Origin: a virus
Lineage: Duplodnaviria > Heunggongvirae > Uroviricota > Caudoviricetes
Strand: one strand, 5' to 3'
IMG/VR virus record: IMGVR_UViG_2660238346_000020
Length of the DNA stretch: 13,692 bases
The notes below the pieces were generated by a model, which worked only from the letters and a program-made list of their open reading frames with translations, had not been told where the DNA came from and did not search any database. This document shows, piece by piece, positions 3,571-13,692 of the stretch (positions are counted from its first letter, which is position 1; the number at the start of each line of letters is the position of its first letter). Position numbers and translations under genes: made by a program.

Positions 3571-4149
3571 TTAGCCGTTAAGTTTAACTGCCAGACCTGC
3601 GACATATTCCCCTTGATAACGAGCAATAGACAGTTCTTCCTGGCTGGGCTGGCGTGAACCGTCACCGCCTGCGATGGTGGTTGCGCCGTACGGCGTACCG
3701 CCGCGAACCTGTGAAACGTCAAATAATTCCTGCGCTGCGTAGCCAATGGGGACAATCACCATGCCGTGATGCGCAAGGGTCGTCCAGGTGGATGTGATGG
3801 TTTGTTCCTGACCGCCGCCAGTACCGGTGGAACTAAAGACGCTCGCCAGTTTTCCGTATAGTGCGCCGGAAGCCCACAGGCCGCCCGTCTGGTCGAGGAA
3901 GGTACGCATTTGACCGGACATGTTACCAAAGCGGGTAGGTGTACCAAAAATAATGGCGTCGTAATCGGCCAGTTCTTGCGGGGTTGCAACCGGTGCAGTT
4001 TGCGTTTTACCGCCTGCTTTTTCAAATAATTGCGGCGGCATGGTTTCCGGTACACGCTTAACGACAACTTCTGCGCCATCCACTTTGCTTGCACCCTCAG
4101 CAACTGCGCGTGCCATCGTTTCAACATGTCTAAGGATATGCTTTATCAT
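3571..4149 (-). CDS. wrbA: WrbA NAD(P)H:quinone oxidoreductase (flavodoxin-like) with a prophage-derived replacement N-terminus (192 aa)
   Basis: From [37 protein letters not shown]... to the C-terminus it reads as WrbA. The first residues MIKHILRHV replace the canonical MAKVLVLYYSMYGHI recalled for K-12, which contains the flavodoxin FMN phosphate-binding loop. The ORF is intact but the product is probably non-functional or altered. Confidence 0.8.
4112..4131. other. Approximate prophage/host junction (att core) inside the 5' end of wrbA
   Basis: Inference: the sequence leftward of about 4125 matches the recalled K-12 wrbA 5' coding sequence (ttgaaacgatggcacgcgcagttgctgagggtgc on the minus strand); rightward of about 4130 it diverges and runs straight into the integrase 3' end. 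Exact core limits need alignment to an uninterrupted wrbA. Confidence 0.5.
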
Positions 4150-5456
4150 TTTGAAAAATATAATTTTATTTCATCCTCCTGGTCACTTTGGGGCACGTCT
4201 GGGGCACGGGCATTAAGGACATTATTCAGCATAGCAACCTGAGTCACGCTGCACTCAGGCATCCATGCACCATAAACATTGTAGACCATGCTGGCGCTGG
4301 AGTGCCCCATCTGTGATGCAATAAATGTCGGGTTTGCTCCGGCAGATAAAGCCCAGCACGCATAAGTATGGCGTGACTGATATGCTTTCCGGGCTCTTAT
4401 ACCCGCTCTTTTCATTGCTGAGTCCCATGTTGCCCCGATGGAGCTTACCGCATAGTTAATACCCGCCTTGTGATTCTTGCGAACGATTTGCGGACAGAAA
4501 ACAAAAGTGCACTCGTGCAAAATTGTTCTTCCGTACTCGCGTAATTTAACGGTGATCTGATGCTGCCTGCCAAGACGAGTAAGCATCGCCTGGTTTTTAA
4601 GTGCTTCAATGGCTGGTGCCAGAAGATGTATAACCCGGTCGGTGCCAGCATCAGTCTTTGGTAGCGTAAAATCACCTATTTTTGTAAAATTTCTTCGCAC
4701 TGTTATCGTGCCAACTTTCAGGTCGATATCCTCCCATGCAAGTGCGGCAATTTCACCATGTCGCATCCCCGTAAAAACAGCCACTGTCCAGAGGTTTTTG
4801 GTCTGTTGATGATGACAGGCATCAATGAGGCGACCAAACTCCTCTCTGGTCAGTGGATCTGGCACAGGTTTTGATTTCCTCAGTGGTGTTATTGAATTAA
4901 ACGGGTTTTTCTCCAGATACCCGTTTTCAGCGGCAAAGCTGAACATCCCGGCAGTTGTTGTCATGTAATAGTTTACCGTGGGGACTGTTCTTCCTTTGTT
5001 GGTGGAAGTGTTTTTCCTGCTTTCCTTTTCCCCAGTCAGTAAATCTTTCCTGATGAACAGCAAATCCTCTTTTGTAATCGAGGATGCCAGTCTACCCACG
5101 CCAAGCCTCGGTAGCATATTTTTCATCACTGATTGATAACGATTTAAGGCGTTACTACTGATTTCCATTGCTTTCAGAGTAAGCCATTTCTGTGCCAGTT
5201 CACCGACGGTGATATCTTTTTTTACCAGGCCAAATAGCTTCAGGTTAGGTGAGTCAGGGAATCGCTCGGCATAATCAAACGTTCCTGTTCTGATTGCAAA
5301 GCAGACCGAAGCCCTTAACTCACCAGCGATCTTTCTGTTTTTCGGTGTATCGGGCACGCGAAGATTTTCGCGCACTCGTTTACCCCTGTACTTAAACGTT
5401 ATTCGGAGTTTTCCTCCGTGATTTTCAACGCCGGCTGGATAGGCTGAATTCGCCAT
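4146..5456 (-). CDS. int: Phage integrase, tyrosine site-specific recombinase (436 aa from the ATG at 5456)
   Basis: C-terminal catalytic region with the conserved recombinase residues ([11 protein letters not shown]; SRHTYACW...[13 protein letters not shown]). ATG at 5454-5456 has a strong AGGAGG RBS 4 nt upstream; the listed ORF extends 8 codons further to a GTG. The stop TGA overlaps the wrbA ATG. Confidence 0.9.
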
Positions 5457-5508
5457 TGTTCCTCCTGCGTCCAAGAGCACGCTCAGGTTATACTCTTATG
5501 GACAAGAA

Positions 5509-5793
5509 TTAAACATCCTGAGATGGTAAGGGTTGGTTTTTAATCCAGGTGTTGATGGTAGGAAGATGATAGAGACATTCGCTGTTTTTCTTTGGCGTTC
5601 CGTCGGGGGCGATTTGTTTATATTCTCTGCCGTTCATCCACGCAGCGTCCCTGGCGCGTAATATGGTTCCTTTTCTCAGGCCTGTTACAGCCATTAAAAG
5701 CTCCAGTGTTACCCATTCATTCGCATTTATCTGTACAACAGGTGTGATGACTGGTTGAATGCCATGGCTATGTTGGTTTACGAACTCGCGCAT
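5509..5793 (-). CDS. xis: Putative excisionase / small DNA-binding protein immediately upstream of int (94 aa)
   Basis: Position directly upstream of int on the same strand, small size, basic residues (LRKGTILRARDAAWMNGREY). The assignment is positional; no strong sequence match recalled. Confidence 0.55.
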   Translation of the reverse strand: MREFVNQHSHGIQPVITPVVQINANEWVTLELLMAVTGLRKGTILRARDAAWMNGREYKQIAPDGTPKKNSECLYHLPTINTWIKNQPLPSQDV

Positions 5794-5810
5794 AAGTTAC
5801 CTCCGCATAT

Positions 5811-5837
5811 GTAAGAAAAAACCGCCCGAAGGCGGTT
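5811..5837 (-). terminator. Intrinsic terminator on the minus strand between orf86 and xis
   Basis: Direct: aaccgcc (5820-5826), loop cgaa, ggcggtt (5831-5837). On the minus strand the stem is followed by TTTTCT. Confidence 0.6.
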
Positions 5838-5838
5838 G

Positions 5839-6099
5839 TCAGTTGATTGATGTGCGGCGCATTTTTCGAAGGCTGGCAATATGCTTTTCCTTCTCAATTT
5901 CCGCTTTAATCATATGTAGTTCGTTGTGATCGATTCGCTCAAATTCTGCATTAAATGAGTTAATTGATGCGGCTCTGGTTTTCCCATCCAGCCTTCGGAA
6001 GATCACCTGTGTCAGCGTTACCTTGCAGACTTGAACCGGATAGTTGTTGGCGTCGACGAAGGACTGCCCGCGCTGGATCAGAACGAACACAGGTAGCAT
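5839..6099 (-). CDS. Hypothetical small phage protein in the xis-exo accessory slot (86 aa)
   Basis: ORF in the position lambda uses for the ea/orf60a accessory genes. The AAGGA Shine-Dalgarno abuts the ATG with no spacer, so the start (or the gene) is uncertain. Confidence 0.35.
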   Translation of the reverse strand: MLPVFVLIQRGQSFVDANNYPVQVCKVTLTQVIFRRLDGKTRAASINSFNAEFERIDHNELHMIKAEIEKEKHIASLRKMRRTSIN

Positions 6100-6137
6100 T
6101 CCTTAATTGTCATATCATTTGCACCTCGTTGCTACGG

Positions 6138-6813
6138 CTATCGCCATTGCTCCCCAAATACAAAACCAATTTCAGCCAGTGCCTCGTCCATTTTTTCGAT
6201 GAACTCCGGTACCATTTCGTCAAAAACCTCCATGTATTTTTCATCCCGTTCGACCACGACATAATGCAGGCCTTCACGCTTCATACGCGGGTCATAGTTG
6301 GCAAAGTACCAGGCATCTTTTCGCGTCACCCACATGCTGCACCTGGGCCATGTAAGCCGACTTTATGGCCTCGAAACCACCGAGCCGGAATTTCATGAAA
6401 TCCCGGGAGGTAAACGGGCATTTCAGTTCAAGGCCGTTGCCGTCACTGCATAAACCATCGGGAGAGCAGGCGGTGCGCATACTTTCGTCGCGATAGATGA
6501 TCGGGGATTCAGTAACATTCACGCCGGAAGTGAACTCAAAGAGGGCTCTGGCGTCGTTCTCGTACTGTTTTCCCCAGGCCAGCGCTTTAGCGTTAACTTC
6601 CGGAGCCACACCGGTGCAAACCTCAGCCAGCAGGGTGTGGAAGTAGGACATTTTCATGTCAGGCCATTTCTTTCCTGAGCGGGGTTTTGCTATCACGTTG
6701 TGAACTTCTGAAGCGGTGATGACGCCGAGCCGTAATTTGTGCCACGCATCATCCCCCTGTTCGACAGCTCTCACGTCGATCCCTGTACGTTGCAGGATAA
6801 TGTCCGGTGTCAT
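6138..6813 (-). pseudogene. exo: Lambda-type exonuclease (Red-alpha, exo) disrupted by a frameshift near 6335/6336
   Basis: ORF 6292..6813 encodes Exo residues [31 protein letters not shown]...SAYMAQVQ and then runs out of frame ([14 protein letters not shown]). ORF 6138..6335 in another frame encodes the Exo C-terminus [27 protein letters not shown]...[10 protein letters not shown]. Against lambda exo as recalled (..AQVQYSMWVTRK..), about 5 nt (tacag) are missing between cag and catg. Confidence 0.8.
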
Positions 6814-7595
6814 GCTGCTACCTTCTGCTCTGTGACTTTCTGTTTCAGGAATCCAAGAACCTTCACAGCTTCAGCCTGTGTTAGTTCTGAAGATGTGTAA
6901 ATGTTGCGGCGAAAAATCTGGGAACAGAGCGGCAACAGGTCGTCATCCCACGTTTTTTCCATGGAAGTAAGAAGGGCGTTAATTTCCGACATGGTTTCTT
7001 CGTTAACCGGGGTGATGTCGCGTTCCGGCTGACGTTCTGTAGTATATGCAGTATTTTCGACAATACGCTCGGCTTCATCCTTGTCATAGATGCCAGCAAA
7101 TCCGAAGGCCAGGCGAGCACACTGAATCATGGCTTTGTGCCGTAACATCCGTTTGGGATGCGACTGCCACGGTCCGGTGATTTCTCTGCCTTCGCGGGTT
7201 TTGAATGGTGTGCGGCGACATTCATCCATCCACTCGGTAACGCAGATCGGGTGATTGCGATCTTTGCGGTAAATCCGGCATGTACAGGACTCATTGTCCT
7301 GCTCAAAGTCCATGCCATCAAACTGCTGGTTTTCATTGATAATGCGGGACCAGCCATCAACGCCAACCACCGGAACGATGCCGTTCTGCTTGTCAGGGAA
7401 GGCGTAAATTTCTTTCGTCCAGGGATTAAGGCCGTACTGGTTGGCGACGATCAACAATGCGATAAATTGCGCATCGCTGGCATCACCTTTAAATGCCGTC
7501 TGGCGAAGAGTGGTGATTAGTTCCTGTGGGTCGACAGAATCCATGCCGACACGTTCAGCCAGCTTCCCTGCCAGCGTTGCGAGTGCTGTACTCAT
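6810..7595 (-). CDS. bet: Red-beta single-strand annealing protein Bet (261 aa), intact
   Basis: Near-identical over its full length to lambda Bet as recalled ([66 protein letters not shown]...KVAA). The stop overlaps the exo ATG (ATGA). Confidence 0.95.
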
Positions 7596-7600
7596 CCGTT

Positions 7601-7897
7601 TTATACCTCTGAATCAATATTAATTTGGTGACGGGCGATGGTTTCAGCCATGTAGCGGATGTGTTCTGCCATGCGTTCCTGAAAATCGACATCGTCATCA
7701 AATGCACGGGAAATAGCTTTTTTGCTGGCCCCGTGACGTTGCAGATTATCGATGCATAGCGATTCAAACAGGTGTTGGGGCAGACCTTTTTCCAGGTCGT
7801 CTGCCAGCTCAGCTTCAGTTTCTTCACGGGCAATTTGCTGGTAGTGTCGTGCCCATGACTGCTCTTCAATGCGATCGGGGATAAGCCAGGCATTCAT
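7601..7897 (-). CDS. gam: Gam, RecBCD inhibitor (98 aa, GamS-length form)
   Basis: Matches lambda Gam (..[44 protein letters not shown]...[24 protein letters not shown]). Confidence 0.92.
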
Positions 7898-9033
7898 GAT
7901 TTATCACCTCCGAAATTTTCAAGCCTGTTGGCAATCATGATGGCGATATCAGGGATTGCTGGCGCTGTGGCTATACATGCGGGGTTGGCGCACAAACCAT
8001 AGACGGCGGCAATCACGAGCTGTCTTTTCCAGTCGAGAGTTACTGGCTCAGAATTGGCGTCATCGCCGGACGTATCACTGCCTGGCTCGTTCTGAACAAC
8101 GGTTTCGCCCTCCTGAGCGGCATCAACAGAGTTTTCCTGAATGATCTTCTCCTCAGTTTGTGCTGAGTCTTCTCCATCAGCGGCGTCATTTTCTCCAAAA
8201 GTTTCTGTGTAAGTGCTATCGCCCATTACCGCACTACAGTCAGGGCAGTTACCCCCGCCAGTCTGACCACAGACGCGGCAGTTTTTTTCCAGCTCCGGTT
8301 GCGCTACTGGCCCTGGCTGTTGCTCTTCTGGCCCGTTTTGTTGCGTATCCGGGCTGTTTTGTCCCGCTTCTGGGGCAATTTGTTCCACTTTGGACTGATT
8401 CTGGTCCTCAGTGTCGCGAGTCTGGATCCCCTTCACCCACTTCGGATCAGCAGGGTTACTGATGCCTTCAACGAATTCTCCACGCGAGGCAGCCAGTAAT
8501 TTGTCGGCATCGACTGGATTTTTTGGGGGGATGTTTTCCCTGGCTTTATTGAGTTCCTCCCTCAGTTCCTGGTATTTCGTTTCTACAGATGAGACATTTT
8601 CCAGTGATTGCGTGTCCTCATTATGTTTAACTGGAATTTCTTCCACTGATTCAGGCGCTGCCTGTTCATTAGCCATTGTGTCCGATGCTTGTTGCTTTTC
8701 TTCATCGCCATGTTTTCCTTCTGCTGTTCCGCGCTGCGGCATCGGTGCTGATGAGCGACCGCAGGCAATTTCCACGATTTCCGGATCCGGGTTAGCGTGA
8801 TCGGTTTCGGTCAACACTTTGTTGAGATATTCAGTCACGCGTGCCGGGATGGCCTCAATGCCGATTGGTGCTTCTTTCACGGAAGCCACCACAATGGCGC
8901 GGGAATAATCCAGCCCACCGGGCATGGCGATAAATTTGTCGCGAAAAACAGAAAAGGGCGGCTTATTCTCTGACACGATTTCTTCAACGCGTTTTGCGTG
9001 TGCTGGGTGCAGGTTATAAATATCCACATCCAT
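7894..9033 (-). CDS. Hypothetical phage accessory protein, 379 aa: N-terminal domain, long acidic/Gln/Pro-rich low-complexity region, CxxC-x7-CxxC zinc-ribbon-like motif, hydrophobic C-terminal segment
   Basis: Long ORF whose stop overlaps the gam ATG (ATGA), implying co-transcription and coupling. Motif [15 protein letters not shown] encoded at about 8230-8290. No recognisable family. The frame stays open a further 50 codons upstream (to 9183) with no start codon. Confidence 0.55.
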
Positions 9034-9249
9034 TGAACGGGCCAGAACGCCGGTGGCTACATCTCGTGCGAGTGATGTCTTATCATGTTTGAATCCTTCA
9101 CCACGATCGGTAATATTTCCGCCGCCAGCGTTAGCACCGGAAGGCGTACGGGTAATGCCTGAAACATAATTTCCGTAAAGCAGTCAGGACACTTACTTGC
9201 TCTTTTATGAACACTCTTTTATGAAAATTGAAACGGAGAATACTGCCAG

Positions 9250-10650
9250 ATGAGTCATCAGTGTTCACTTTCTGAACTGAATGAAAACCTGGTGCCTTTC
9301 ACTGCCAGGCAGATTAAGTCCTCATTAATCTGGTGTGCAGAGGATGTCAGAAATCCAGACGAGCTGCAAAATGCCTGCAGTTATATTATCGATCCTGGCA
9401 GTACAGCTTCTGCCAAAGTGTTCCATGCAGAGCGCTATGGTGGCAGTGGTATTCAGCGTAATGGAGGTGGTGCACGTTGTGGGTTTGATGGTAACTACCA
9501 GGTTAAAGGAATAGGAAGTAATCCGTTGGTTGGCGAAGGTACTGACGAACGTCATTCTAATGGTGCACTCGGCGCTGTTCATGCAATATATGAGGCTTTG
9601 TGGGGAGAAGTACTGGCTCAAATATTACCTTATAGTGCTGTGCGGGTTCGGGCGGTTTTACTTACAGATCTCTATACTGAAAAGGCATTTGAGCGCTCCG
9701 GTAGGAAATCACGAAGAGCCCTGTTGGTACGTGAGCCTGTTGTTCGCCCGGCGCATTTTGAACGGGCACCTTACTTCCAAGTAAAACCGGAGTATTCCAG
9801 TCAGTTAATTCACGATGCCTGTCGGGTTAGATCTGTGATCCACAAGCTGCCAGGATATCTACCTGTACCACCGGAAGAAATTGATGCTGAAGCACGAACT
9901 GATCCCCGGATTTATTGCATTGAGGGGTTATGTGAACTGGCACGTCGTGAGGCCTGGCAAATGGCATTTTGTCGAACACGTTTCCTGAGATTGACAACTT
10001 CTCCTTCTAATATTGCAATGGATGGCAGATTAATGGATTTTAACGGACTCAGTTGTCTGTTTCCGGGAGATTCCCCAGCTGATTTTGGGTATAAACTAAG
10101 ATTAGCTGAACTGGCAAAAGAACCGATGGTACTTATGCAAGGGCTGTCTGATCTCTGCTTGTATATCGGAAAATATATGTTTGACCCTGACTTCACTCTT
10201 GCAGCCCGTTTGAAGGTTGAGGAGATATTTCAGAAAACTTTTCATGAAGCATGTTATTACTGTTATCTAGAACTGTTGGGTATTCCTGGAGAATTTATAA
10301 CACAAAAAGAGATACCTGATATATTGAAAGAACTGGTTAACAGTTTTGTTGCATTACTCAATAAATACTGCGAGAAATCACATGCCCAAGATATTGTCAA
10401 TCAGGATGGTTCACCATTGCAAAAGTTGGTTGTGACGCTAATCCATCATAGGCATAATCAAAAGCAGGCACTGAATAGTAGCATCAAGAATGATGTTTAT
10501 TTCACCGTTGCACAACAGTGTTTTTCCCAGGCCATCCACTGGCTGACGCAAGGCAGTACCAGACGTCAGATAAATGCCTCATTACTCCTGAAAGAAATTG
10601 AACATCATACCATGAAAAGGCTGCAACCCAGGGAAGAGCTGAGGAAATAG
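9250..10650 (+). CDS. mchC: Microcin maturation protein, MchC/MceJ-like (466 aa); assignment by operon context
   Basis: Large ORF with SD (acggag) immediately upstream of the HlyC-family acyltransferase gene and the CvaA/CvaB-family exporter genes, the arrangement of siderophore-microcin (H47/M/E492) clusters. I cannot confirm homology from memory of the MchC sequence. Confidence 0.5.
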   Translation: MSHQCSLSELNENLVPFTARQIKSSLIWCAEDVRNPDELQNACSYIIDPGSTASAKVFHAERYGGSGIQRNGGGARCGFDGNYQVKGIGSNPLVGEGTDERHSNGALGAVHAIYEALWGEVLAQILPYSAVRVRAVLLTDLYTEKAFERSGRKSRRALLVREPVVRPAHFERAPYFQVKPEYSSQLIHDACRVRSVIHKLPGYLPVPPEEIDAEARTDPRIYCIEGLCELARREAWQMAFCRTRFLRLTTSPSNIAMDGRLMDFNGLSCLFPGDSPADFGYKLRLAELAKEPMVLMQGLSDLCLYIGKYMFDPDFTLAARLKVEEIFQKTFHEACYYCYLELLGIPGEFITQKEIPDILKELVNSFVALLNKYCEKSHAQDIVNQDGSPLQKLVVTLIHHRHNQKQALNSSIKNDVYFTVAQQCFSQAIHWLTQGSTRRQINASLLLKEIEHHTMKRLQPREELRK

Positions 10651-10653
10651 AAT

Positions 10654-10800
10654 ATGTGCGAAAAAATTGCCATCCTGCTGGATAATCATGGCGATGATCC
10701 CCTTTTTTTACAAGAAGCAATTTCTGATATGAAAAATTTTATGCTTAAGTTTTCCAGAGATGCATTTGGATATCTTGAACCGATAAGAAACACAGTGTAA
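10654..10800 (+). CDS. Unlisted 48-aa ORF between mchC-like and mchD-like genes (MCEKIAILLDNHGDDPLFLQEAISDMKNFMLKFSRDAFGYLEPIRNTV)
   Basis: Direct: ATG 3 nt after the mchC stop with GAGGAAA 7 nt upstream; ends 25 nt before the mchD ATG. Below the length cutoff of the ORF track. No double-glycine leader and no Gly/Ser-rich core, so it does not look like a microcin precursor. Confidence 0.3.
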   Translation: MCEKIAILLDNHGDDPLFLQEAISDMKNFMLKFSRDAFGYLEPIRNTV

Positions 10801-12705: not shown

Positions 12706-13471
12706 CGGGAATTTCAGACAAATTATAAATCAGCTTGATATGCGCTGGCGACGTCGTGTTCCGGTTATTCATCAGACGGAGACCGCTGAATGTGGACTGG
12801 CCTGCCTGGCAATGATATGCGGTCATTTTGGTAAGAATATTGACCTGATATCTCTTCGCCGGAAGTTTAATCTCTCGGCCCGTGGAGCAAACCTTGCAGG
12901 AATCAATGGAATAGCGGAGCAGCTGGGGATGGTCACCCGGGCTCTTTCACTGGAGCTGAATGAGCTTGGTGCCCTCAAAATGCCGTGTATTCTCCACTGG
13001 GATTTCAGTCACTTCGTCGTGCTGGTCAGCGTAAAGCGTAACCGTTATGTACTGCATGATCCGGCCAGAGGCAGAAGATATCTCGGTCGGGAGGAAATGA
13101 GCCGGTATTTTACGGGCATTGCACTGGAGGTCTGGCCCGGAAGTGAATTCCAGGCGGAAACCCAGCAGACCCGCATAAGTCTCCGTTCACTGATTAACAG
13201 TATTTACGGTATTAAAAGAACACTGGCGAAAATTTTCTGTCTGTCAGTTGTAATTGAAGCAATCAATCTGGTAATGCCGGTGGGGACTCAGCTGGTTATG
13301 GATCATGCGATTCCGGCGGGGGACAGAGGGCTGCTGACGCTTATTTCTGCTGGCCTTATGTTCTTTATATTGCTCAAGGCCGCGGTGAGTATGCTGCGTG
13401 CATGGTCCTCACTAGTTATGAGCACGCTCATCAATGTACAGTGGCAGTCGGTGATGCTGCCAACTTACTGA
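12698..13471 (+). pseudogene. mchF: CvaB/MchF-family bacteriocin ABC transporter, 5' fragment only: C39 peptidase domain and first TM region (about 251 native codons), truncated by IS1
   Basis: [50 protein letters not shown]... (C39 catalytic Cys in ECGLAC and His in HFVVL) matches CvaB through ...LINVQWQS. From 13450 the frame reads IS1 terminal sequence (VMLPTY*). Transmembrane and ATPase domains are absent from the window. Confidence 0.88.
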
Positions 13472-13692
13472 TTTAGTGTATGATGGTGTTTTTGAGGTGC
13501 TCCAGTGGCTTCTGTTTCTATCAGCTGTCCCTCCTGTTCAGCTACTGACGGGGTGGTGCGTAACGGCAAAAGCACCGCCGGACATCAGCGCTATCTCTGC
13601 TCTCACTGCCGTAAAACATGGCAACTGCAGTTCAATTACACCGCTTCTCAACCTGGTACGCACCAGAAAAGCATTGATATGGCCATGAATGG
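13450..13692 (+). mobile_element. IS1 insertion sequence, left end with terminal inverted repeat; continues beyond the window
   Basis: Direct: GGTGATGCTGCCAACTTACTGATTTAGTGTATGATGGTGTTTTTGAGGTGCTCCAGTGGCTTCTGTTTCTATCAGCTG is the canonical IS1 terminus and insA upstream region. Confidence 0.92.
13505..13692 (+). CDS. insA: IS1 InsA (partial, runs off window end); GTG start
   Basis: Translation [63 protein letters not shown] matches InsA, with two substitutions against the variant I recall. Not in the ORF track because no stop lies within the window; the listed ORF 13476..13688 is in a different frame. Confidence 0.88.

Follow-up and report, generated by a model that had tools for sequence, protein, structure and literature searches.

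The exo gene (red-alpha) of a lambdoid prophage of Escherichia coli has lost exactly five base pairs, which divides its coding sequence between two reading frames, and the neighbouring bet and gam are intact open reading frames. The deletion is a derived state and is restricted to one near-clonal lineage of the host. Very probably, exo was broken by slippage in the wrbA prophage of that lineage, this copy yields no functional Red-alpha, and bet and gam are intact since the event is recent. The result is a genuine frameshift pseudogene, specific to the lineage and of a commonplace kind, in a very well known gene.

The exo deletion and its prophage setting

By its sequence, the window (the whole 13,692-nucleotide stretch of DNA analysed here) includes the left arm of a lambdoid prophage inserted at E. 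coli wrbA. The left 4.1 kb are E. coli core DNA (cbpM, cbpA, agp, yccJ, wrbA) that is 99.9% identical to several complete genomes, and the prophage genes follow from wrbA in the order int, xis, DUF4222, exo, bet, gam and a RecE-N-like gene. The features are as follows, in window coordinates.

3571..4149, minus strand: wrbA, the host gene with the attachment site; host homology stops at 4130
4146..5456, minus strand: tyrosine integrase, 436 aa as called, with an open reading frame reaching 5480; abuts wrbA
5509..5793, minus strand: excisionase (DUF1233)
5839..6099, minus strand: DUF4222 gene, directly downstream of exo
6138..6335, minus strand: exo 3' fragment, 65 codons, Met162 to Arg226 (...GEQWR), in the other frame; putatively translated
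6336..6340, minus strand: 5-bp deletion junction in exo, placed by alignment to ML35, lambda exo and intact-exo relatives; the frame beyond it is +1
6292..6813, minus strand: exo (red-alpha) 5' fragment, 173 aa, made up of 159 native codons and 14 out-of-frame codons before a stop; Pfam YqaJ, PF09588
6810..7595, minus strand: bet (red-beta), intact, 261 aa, 94% identical to lambda Bet
7601..7897, minus strand: gam, intact, 98 aa (the length of GamS), 84% identical to lambda
7894..9176, minus strand: 3' part of a RecE N-terminal-like gene (PF06630), open reading frame 7894-9033; homology to sister contigs stops at 9176
9170..9182, no strand: join between the prophage and sequence upstream of mchC, probably made by scaffolding or gap-filling

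The exo region (6138-6813, minus strand) appears in the open reading frame listing as two overlapping frames one base apart, in agreement with an earlier sequence-only reading that had placed the N- and C-terminal halves of exo in different frames. The upstream frame reads ...SAYMAQVQ before its 14 out-of-frame residues, and the 3' fragment by itself has no Pfam match. Aligned to exo of E. coli ML35, the closest intact allele among complete genomes, and to lambda exo (NC_001416 31348-32028), the window lacks exactly 5 nt, which the lambda reference contains; the intact sequence GGTGCAGTACAGCATG has become GGTGCAGCATG, and the sequence spanning the junction is GGCCCAGGTGCAGCATGTGGGTG. That reading had put a loss of about 5 nt at 6335/6336: the size is exact, and the site lies 1-4 nt away, at 6336-6340. 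It had also read the loss of the residues YS followed by a frame shift, and Tyr160 and Ser161 are indeed absent. Apart from the 5-bp indel, the exo coding sequence is 100% identical to that of ML35.

In context the deletion is GGTG[CAGTA]CAGCATG, with a CAG triplet on either side. Because of this flanking direct repeat, the deleted bases can equally be written CAGTA, AGTAC, GTACA or TACAG, and the junction can be placed anywhere in 6336-6340 of the plus strand. The arrangement of CAG...CAG around the deleted pentamer carries the signature of slipped-strand deletion, suggesting that replication slippage between the two triplets removed the 5 bp in a small near-clonal host lineage. We found no evidence for an IS excision footprint as the source of the deletion and of the contig breaks described below, and CAG slippage together with a second intact copy is the simpler explanation.

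The operon resembles the lambda Red operon (exo-bet-gam, NC_001416 31348-33232) in gene order, overlaps and leftward strand, and after repair of the frame the window Exo is identical to lambda Exo at 220 of 226 positions. It differs from lambda in the 5-bp frameshift deletion in exo; in the DUF4222 gene, which replaces the exo-xis region downstream; in its int/xis, which targets wrbA and not attB-lambda; and upstream of gam, where lambda has kil and cIII and the window prophage has a 690-aa RecE-N-like gene instead. The full gene encodes a RecE family (Exonuc_VIII, PF06630) protein (positions 699-2771 of sister contig L004); the 379-aa C-terminal part of this protein that is encoded in the window (7894-9033) has no Pfam match and no recognisable nuclease domain.

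Several other features of the window were recorded along the way. The wrbA reading frame stays open past 4130 to an ATG at 4149, overlapping the integrase stop codon, and the prophage appears, from this arrangement, to supply a replacement wrbA 5' end (192 aa). Immediately after the DUF4222 gene, a strong hairpin followed by a T-run (AACCGCCTTCGGGCGGTT TTTTCTT, 5837-5820, minus strand) probably terminates the leftward transcript ahead of xis and int. At positions 1-277 a 101-bp unit of REP type, familiar from E. coli intergenic regions, is repeated in tandem 2.7 times; for two of the copies Rfam naRNA4 (RF02564) scores 76.5 and 75.2 bits.

Past the join at 9176 lie four siderophore-microcin genes (mchC, mchD, mchE and mchF), and the last stretch of the window is IS1. 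Exactly at this join the sister assembly L002 (4541-4550) reads cataaNNNNcgNNNctgtcagg, a run that contains Ns, and the window differs from L002 there by a 2-nt indel and one mismatch, the only other differences being three mismatches in the terminal IS1. The native sequence upstream of mchC is found elsewhere, both on L023, another contig of the same assembly, and on five sister contigs, and sister phage contigs run beyond 9176 into the full 690-aa gene, dicB and N. The window is thus most likely a gap-filled scaffold of two contigs. A fusion of the prophage to the microcin island at about 9176, as a form of prophage decay, is probably artefactual in view of the Ns, the indel, L023 and the sister contigs. 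With the join probably a scaffold join, the window says nothing on whether the prophage is a remnant.

Two of the microcin genes carry lesions of their own. In mchC, a MceJ-like siderophore-microcin maturation gene (9250-10800), GAA has become TAA at 10648 (E467*, relative to the 516-aa product of E. coli 95-3322). The resulting 466-aa product occurs on 12 contigs of the lineage, including the Logan assembly ERR738834, and mchC is therefore a real second pseudogene. The C39-peptidase ABC exporter gene mchF is cut at about 13441-13451 by an IS1 that is 98.4% identical to IS1A/IS1B; the window ends inside this element (13441-13692), and mchB and mchI lie outside it.

Distribution of the deletion and the question of an artefact

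Searched with an 80-nt probe across the junction, complete E. coli genomes gave 3,415 matching records (3,406 genomes, 4,748 places), and none of them has the deletion: every match was at most 94.1% identical, that is, carried the extra five bases. Each of the best 30 phage records listed likewise spans the five bases. Two further searches were uninformative: an exact scan for the junction in GTDB species representatives gave 0 matches, with one genome per species, and the 173-aa product is absent from the Logan assemblies, as is the Bet T129 allele of the lineage. The exact 173-aa product was found on 7 contigs from 6 draft assemblies (CDRO, CDQU, CDQW, CDQY, CDRA and CCCK). These assemblies are near-clonal: over 6 kb of host flank they show 0 differences, and Bet A129T is common to them. 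The same indel is indeed present in relatives, all of them close ones.

The sequence-only reading had offered a sequencing indel as an alternative. The identical product on the 7 contigs largely excludes this, as the junction is contig-internal and N-free (L002, L003, L004, L006, L007 and L012), with no N within about 180 nt, and random sequencing error is an unlikely source of the deletion.

A broader artefact would be that exo at wrbA is intact and that the gap was made when contigs of two near-identical Red modules were merged or polished during assembly or sequencing. The contig that carries the deletion also carries the probable scaffold join, with Ns at the corresponding place in L002; single Ns occur in this region in several assemblies, and contigs of many assemblies break within exo and bet. 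Moreover, the junction is known only from ENA-style accessions of one or two submission batches (CD and CC prefixes), and the deletion is placed in the wrbA copy on the strength of contig continuity. In one of the assemblies, CDQU (GCA_000936775.1), there are 10 differences between contigs L003 and L017 over 280 nt of exo/bet (window 6558-6837), which means that the CDQU genome has at least two Red modules and, with two exo 5' sequences present, that its assembly paths through exo may be chimeric.

Against this stand the N-free surroundings of the identical junctions and their occurrence inside short contigs of 837-923 nt (L006 and L007), which presumably were never scaffolded. The 3-nt CAG overlap is far too short to merge contigs, and the sequence context is not a homopolymer. 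Real mutations, the mchC E467* change and the IS1 in mchF, are recorded in these same assemblies. In two slightly more distant strains, in addition, contigs from the wrbA side stop at the junction, as a real indel polymorphism between copies would cause them to do.

L011 (CCQT01000139, assembly CCQT01): contig ends at window position 6336
L013 (AAQWXF010000144, assembly AAQWXF01): contig ends at window position 6338

AAQWXF01 belongs to another accession series, pointing to a different assembly pipeline. The breaks suggest that deletion and intact exo coexist or that there is some other discontinuity, and their simplest reading is a fork in the assembly graph where the deletion allele parts from another, intact exo of the same genome. 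Weighing these observations, we consider the artefact unlikely, and a pipeline artefact shared by the assemblies behind the junction rather unlikely as well. Slippage in the wrbA copy would account for the junction, and a second Red module could possibly act on the defect by trans-complementation or repair it by gene conversion.

Age of the lesion and the state of bet and gam

The DUF4222 protein is widespread (404 index blocks), and served to retrieve further contigs; these share the int-xis-DUF4222-exo-bet module with the window, but their exo is one continuous 226-aa frame. Among the wrbA-type modules of this kind, L041, L043 and L046 are identical to window 4339-7585, or the part of it that they cover, except at the 5-bp indel, at nt 7211 and at no more than one private SNP, and unlike the window they have an uninterrupted gene for a 226-aa Exo and Ala at Bet position 129. 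For the larger set with intact 226-aa exo (L040-L044 and L046), the differences are the indel, nt 7211 and 0-3 private SNPs over about 3.2 kb. The Red module of ML35, whose exo coding sequence matches that of the window save for the indel, also has the continuous 226-aa Exo and Bet A129. The near-identity of these intact-exo modules indicates that the exo deletion is derived and very recent, with a divergence from intact relatives of about 1 substitution in 3.2 kb.

Both downstream partners are full length, as had been proposed. The 261-aa Bet matches the RecT annealase family PF03837 over its full length (E=1.8e-33), and the 98-aa Gam matches PF06064 at positions 1-98 of 98 (E=4.8e-65) and aligns to residues 41-138 of lambda Gam, the GamS part. 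The description of the two proteins as near-identical to lambda is apt for Bet, at 94%, and overstated for Gam, at only 84%. In lambda, Bet can anneal ssDNA by itself, and RecBCD is inhibited by Gam. The window Bet conserves Leu223, Gln226, Ile227, Arg229, Phe249, Leu250, Gln252, Lys253 and Glu256, the set of C-terminal-domain residues touching Exo or SSB being taken from PMC6393309. Its one lineage-specific missense change, A129T (nt 7211), falls at a variable position that is Ala in all intact-exo relatives and Glu in lambda, and the T129 allele is found on only 8 contigs in a collection of 15 billion proteins. A promoter scan of 5800-9300 gave 2 sites against 3.1 expected, nothing above chance for an internal bet/gam promoter.

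Intact genes beside a broken exo had been interpreted as differential decay of the Red operon. This is unsupported. With a lesion so young, the null expectation is that its neighbours are intact: at about 1 substitution per 3.2 kb, bet and gam would not be expected to have taken a hit as well. Nor is it remarkable that the first hit fell in exo, since exo makes up 39% of the exo+bet+gam target (681/1764 nt). On the preferred reading, bet and gam would be unaffected owing to the recency of a probably neutral event and not to active preservation.

The idea that exo was preferentially lost and bet and gam were kept by selection, either for a host or prophage benefit or because Exo is costly in lysogens, draws on the ability of Bet alone to support ssDNA recombination (PMC3945230) and on several independent exo lesions in other E. 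coli prophages with intact bet and gam. The other lesions are listed here.

Q157* (a CAG to TAG change three codons before the deletion site): L010 (9064-9744), L014 (3246-3926), L026 and L029
1-nt insertion: L030
Internal deletion: L028
5' truncation: L045
CCAT duplication with truncation: L031

In the first six of these contigs (L010, L014, L026, L029, L030 and L028) the lesion in exo falls in or before codons 149-162, bet and gam are intact, and the 65-aa Met162 open reading frame is called separately, as in the window. Their lesions are independent of the one studied here, lying in other exo alleles and prophage backgrounds, and none has the 5-bp deletion. The Q157* allele was met both in an icd-integrated and in a wrbA-type prophage background, accompanied by the same linked SNPs in each, which hints that broken exo alleles may move between prophages by recombination. 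These lesions were found by searching exo fragments, however, so the sample is biased to exo disruption, and the reciprocal look-up, with a common Bet fragment (the abundant 105-aa partial P0034, always a truncation of this kind), gave contig-end truncations only; hence they permit no comparison of rates. The neutral probability of two independent first hits in exo is about 0.15 (0.39 squared), about 1 substitution in 3.2 kb leaves no time for selection on bet or gam to show, and the sole other derived change is a missense in bet itself. Selected loss is for these reasons improbable. We regard with the same scepticism its fuller form, in which exo is the preferred target of inactivation, Bet and Gam are kept as a host-beneficial module for ssDNA annealing and against RecBCD, and broken alleles (this deletion and Q157*) spread by gene conversion between co-resident prophages.

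Expected effect of the truncation on Red recombination

The 5' fragment matches PF09588 at residues 24-160 (E=3.8e-27; profile positions 2-142 of 150), and the intact sister allele aligns end to end (residues 1-226) with the lambda Exo structures 1AVQ, 3SM4 and 6M9K at E of about 1e-153; a single-sequence AlphaFold model of that allele, with a mean pLDDT of 33.8, was too poor to use. A functional member of the YqaJ family (PF09588, PD-(D/E)XK) would need a continuous open reading frame of about 226 codons over the whole single-domain fold; the frame in the window breaks after codon 159, which makes this exo a pseudogene of the family and not a functional member. The 173-aa translation retains helix E and, at their expected positions, the catalytic and DNA-handling residues Arg28, Arg45, Leu78, Asp119, Glu129 and Lys131, Asp119 and Glu129 being numbered as in lambda Exo. 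Arg28, Arg45, Leu78 and Lys131 are named as lambda Exo residues in PMC11611040.

Translation would end after Gln159 and 14 unrelated residues, and the product lacks the last 67 residues of Exo, two of which, Leu184 and Tyr186, form contacts with the Bet C-terminal domain (PMC6393309). The break sits within the single-domain Exo fold (PMC11611040) and probably removes the fourth and last strand of the core beta-sheet. As the PD-(D/E)XK fold spans the whole length of Exo, loss of these residues would leave no functional Red-alpha, and we infer that the truncated protein is inactive. The inactivation of exo by a short deletion, as originally claimed, thus holds for the 5-nt frameshift as found, with loss of activity as its predicted consequence.

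That exo still works, through +1 ribosomal frameshifting in the 43-nt overlap of the two frames or through reassembly of two separately translated fragments, is scarcely credible: the 3' frame does begin at the native Met162, with AGGTG 4 nt 5' of its ATG, and the 5' fragment does hold all catalytic residues, but in the overlap (6292-6335) neither a slippery heptamer or other slippery motif nor a prfB-like CUU-UGA context is present, an SD-like stimulator is missing upstream, a frameshift product would lose or replace residues 160-176 in a fold that the break interrupts, and the intact relatives (3,406 genomes; 3,415/3,415 matching complete-genome records in frame) are all single-frame. A programmed +1 frameshift or functional split gene is accordingly rejected on sequence context and want of conservation.

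In lambda, deletion of red-alpha abolishes Red recombination on dsDNA as fully as deletion of red-beta, and Exo is dispensable once the substrate is already single-stranded (PMC3945230). Phage lambda without exo is viable, with stocks of about 1e9 against 1e10 PFU/ml (PMC3945230), so that loss of exo is no mark of a dead prophage. By analogy, we expect that this copy has lost recombination initiated at dsDNA ends and has kept its coding capacity for Bet and Gam; the prophage alone would be unable to resect dsDNA ends for Bet. The recET genes of the Rac prophage of E. coli K-12 form a prophage exonuclease/annealase pair whose activity hangs on the state and expression of the exonuclease gene. 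The RecE and RecT families differ in sequence from lambda Exo and Bet, and Rac recE is intact but silent, whereas the window exo is broken.

The case carries two cautions: with so young a lesion, intact neighbouring genes say nothing on selective retention, and the probable scaffold join would otherwise mimic a fusion of prophage and microcin island. The exo gene here should be annotated as a pseudogene, and the finding has little importance beyond that annotation. For the host lineage, it means that the wrbA prophage cannot by itself supply Red-alpha for recombination at dsDNA ends. A genome-wide excess of hits in exo over bet and gam, if it were true, would bear on the domestication of prophage recombination modules.
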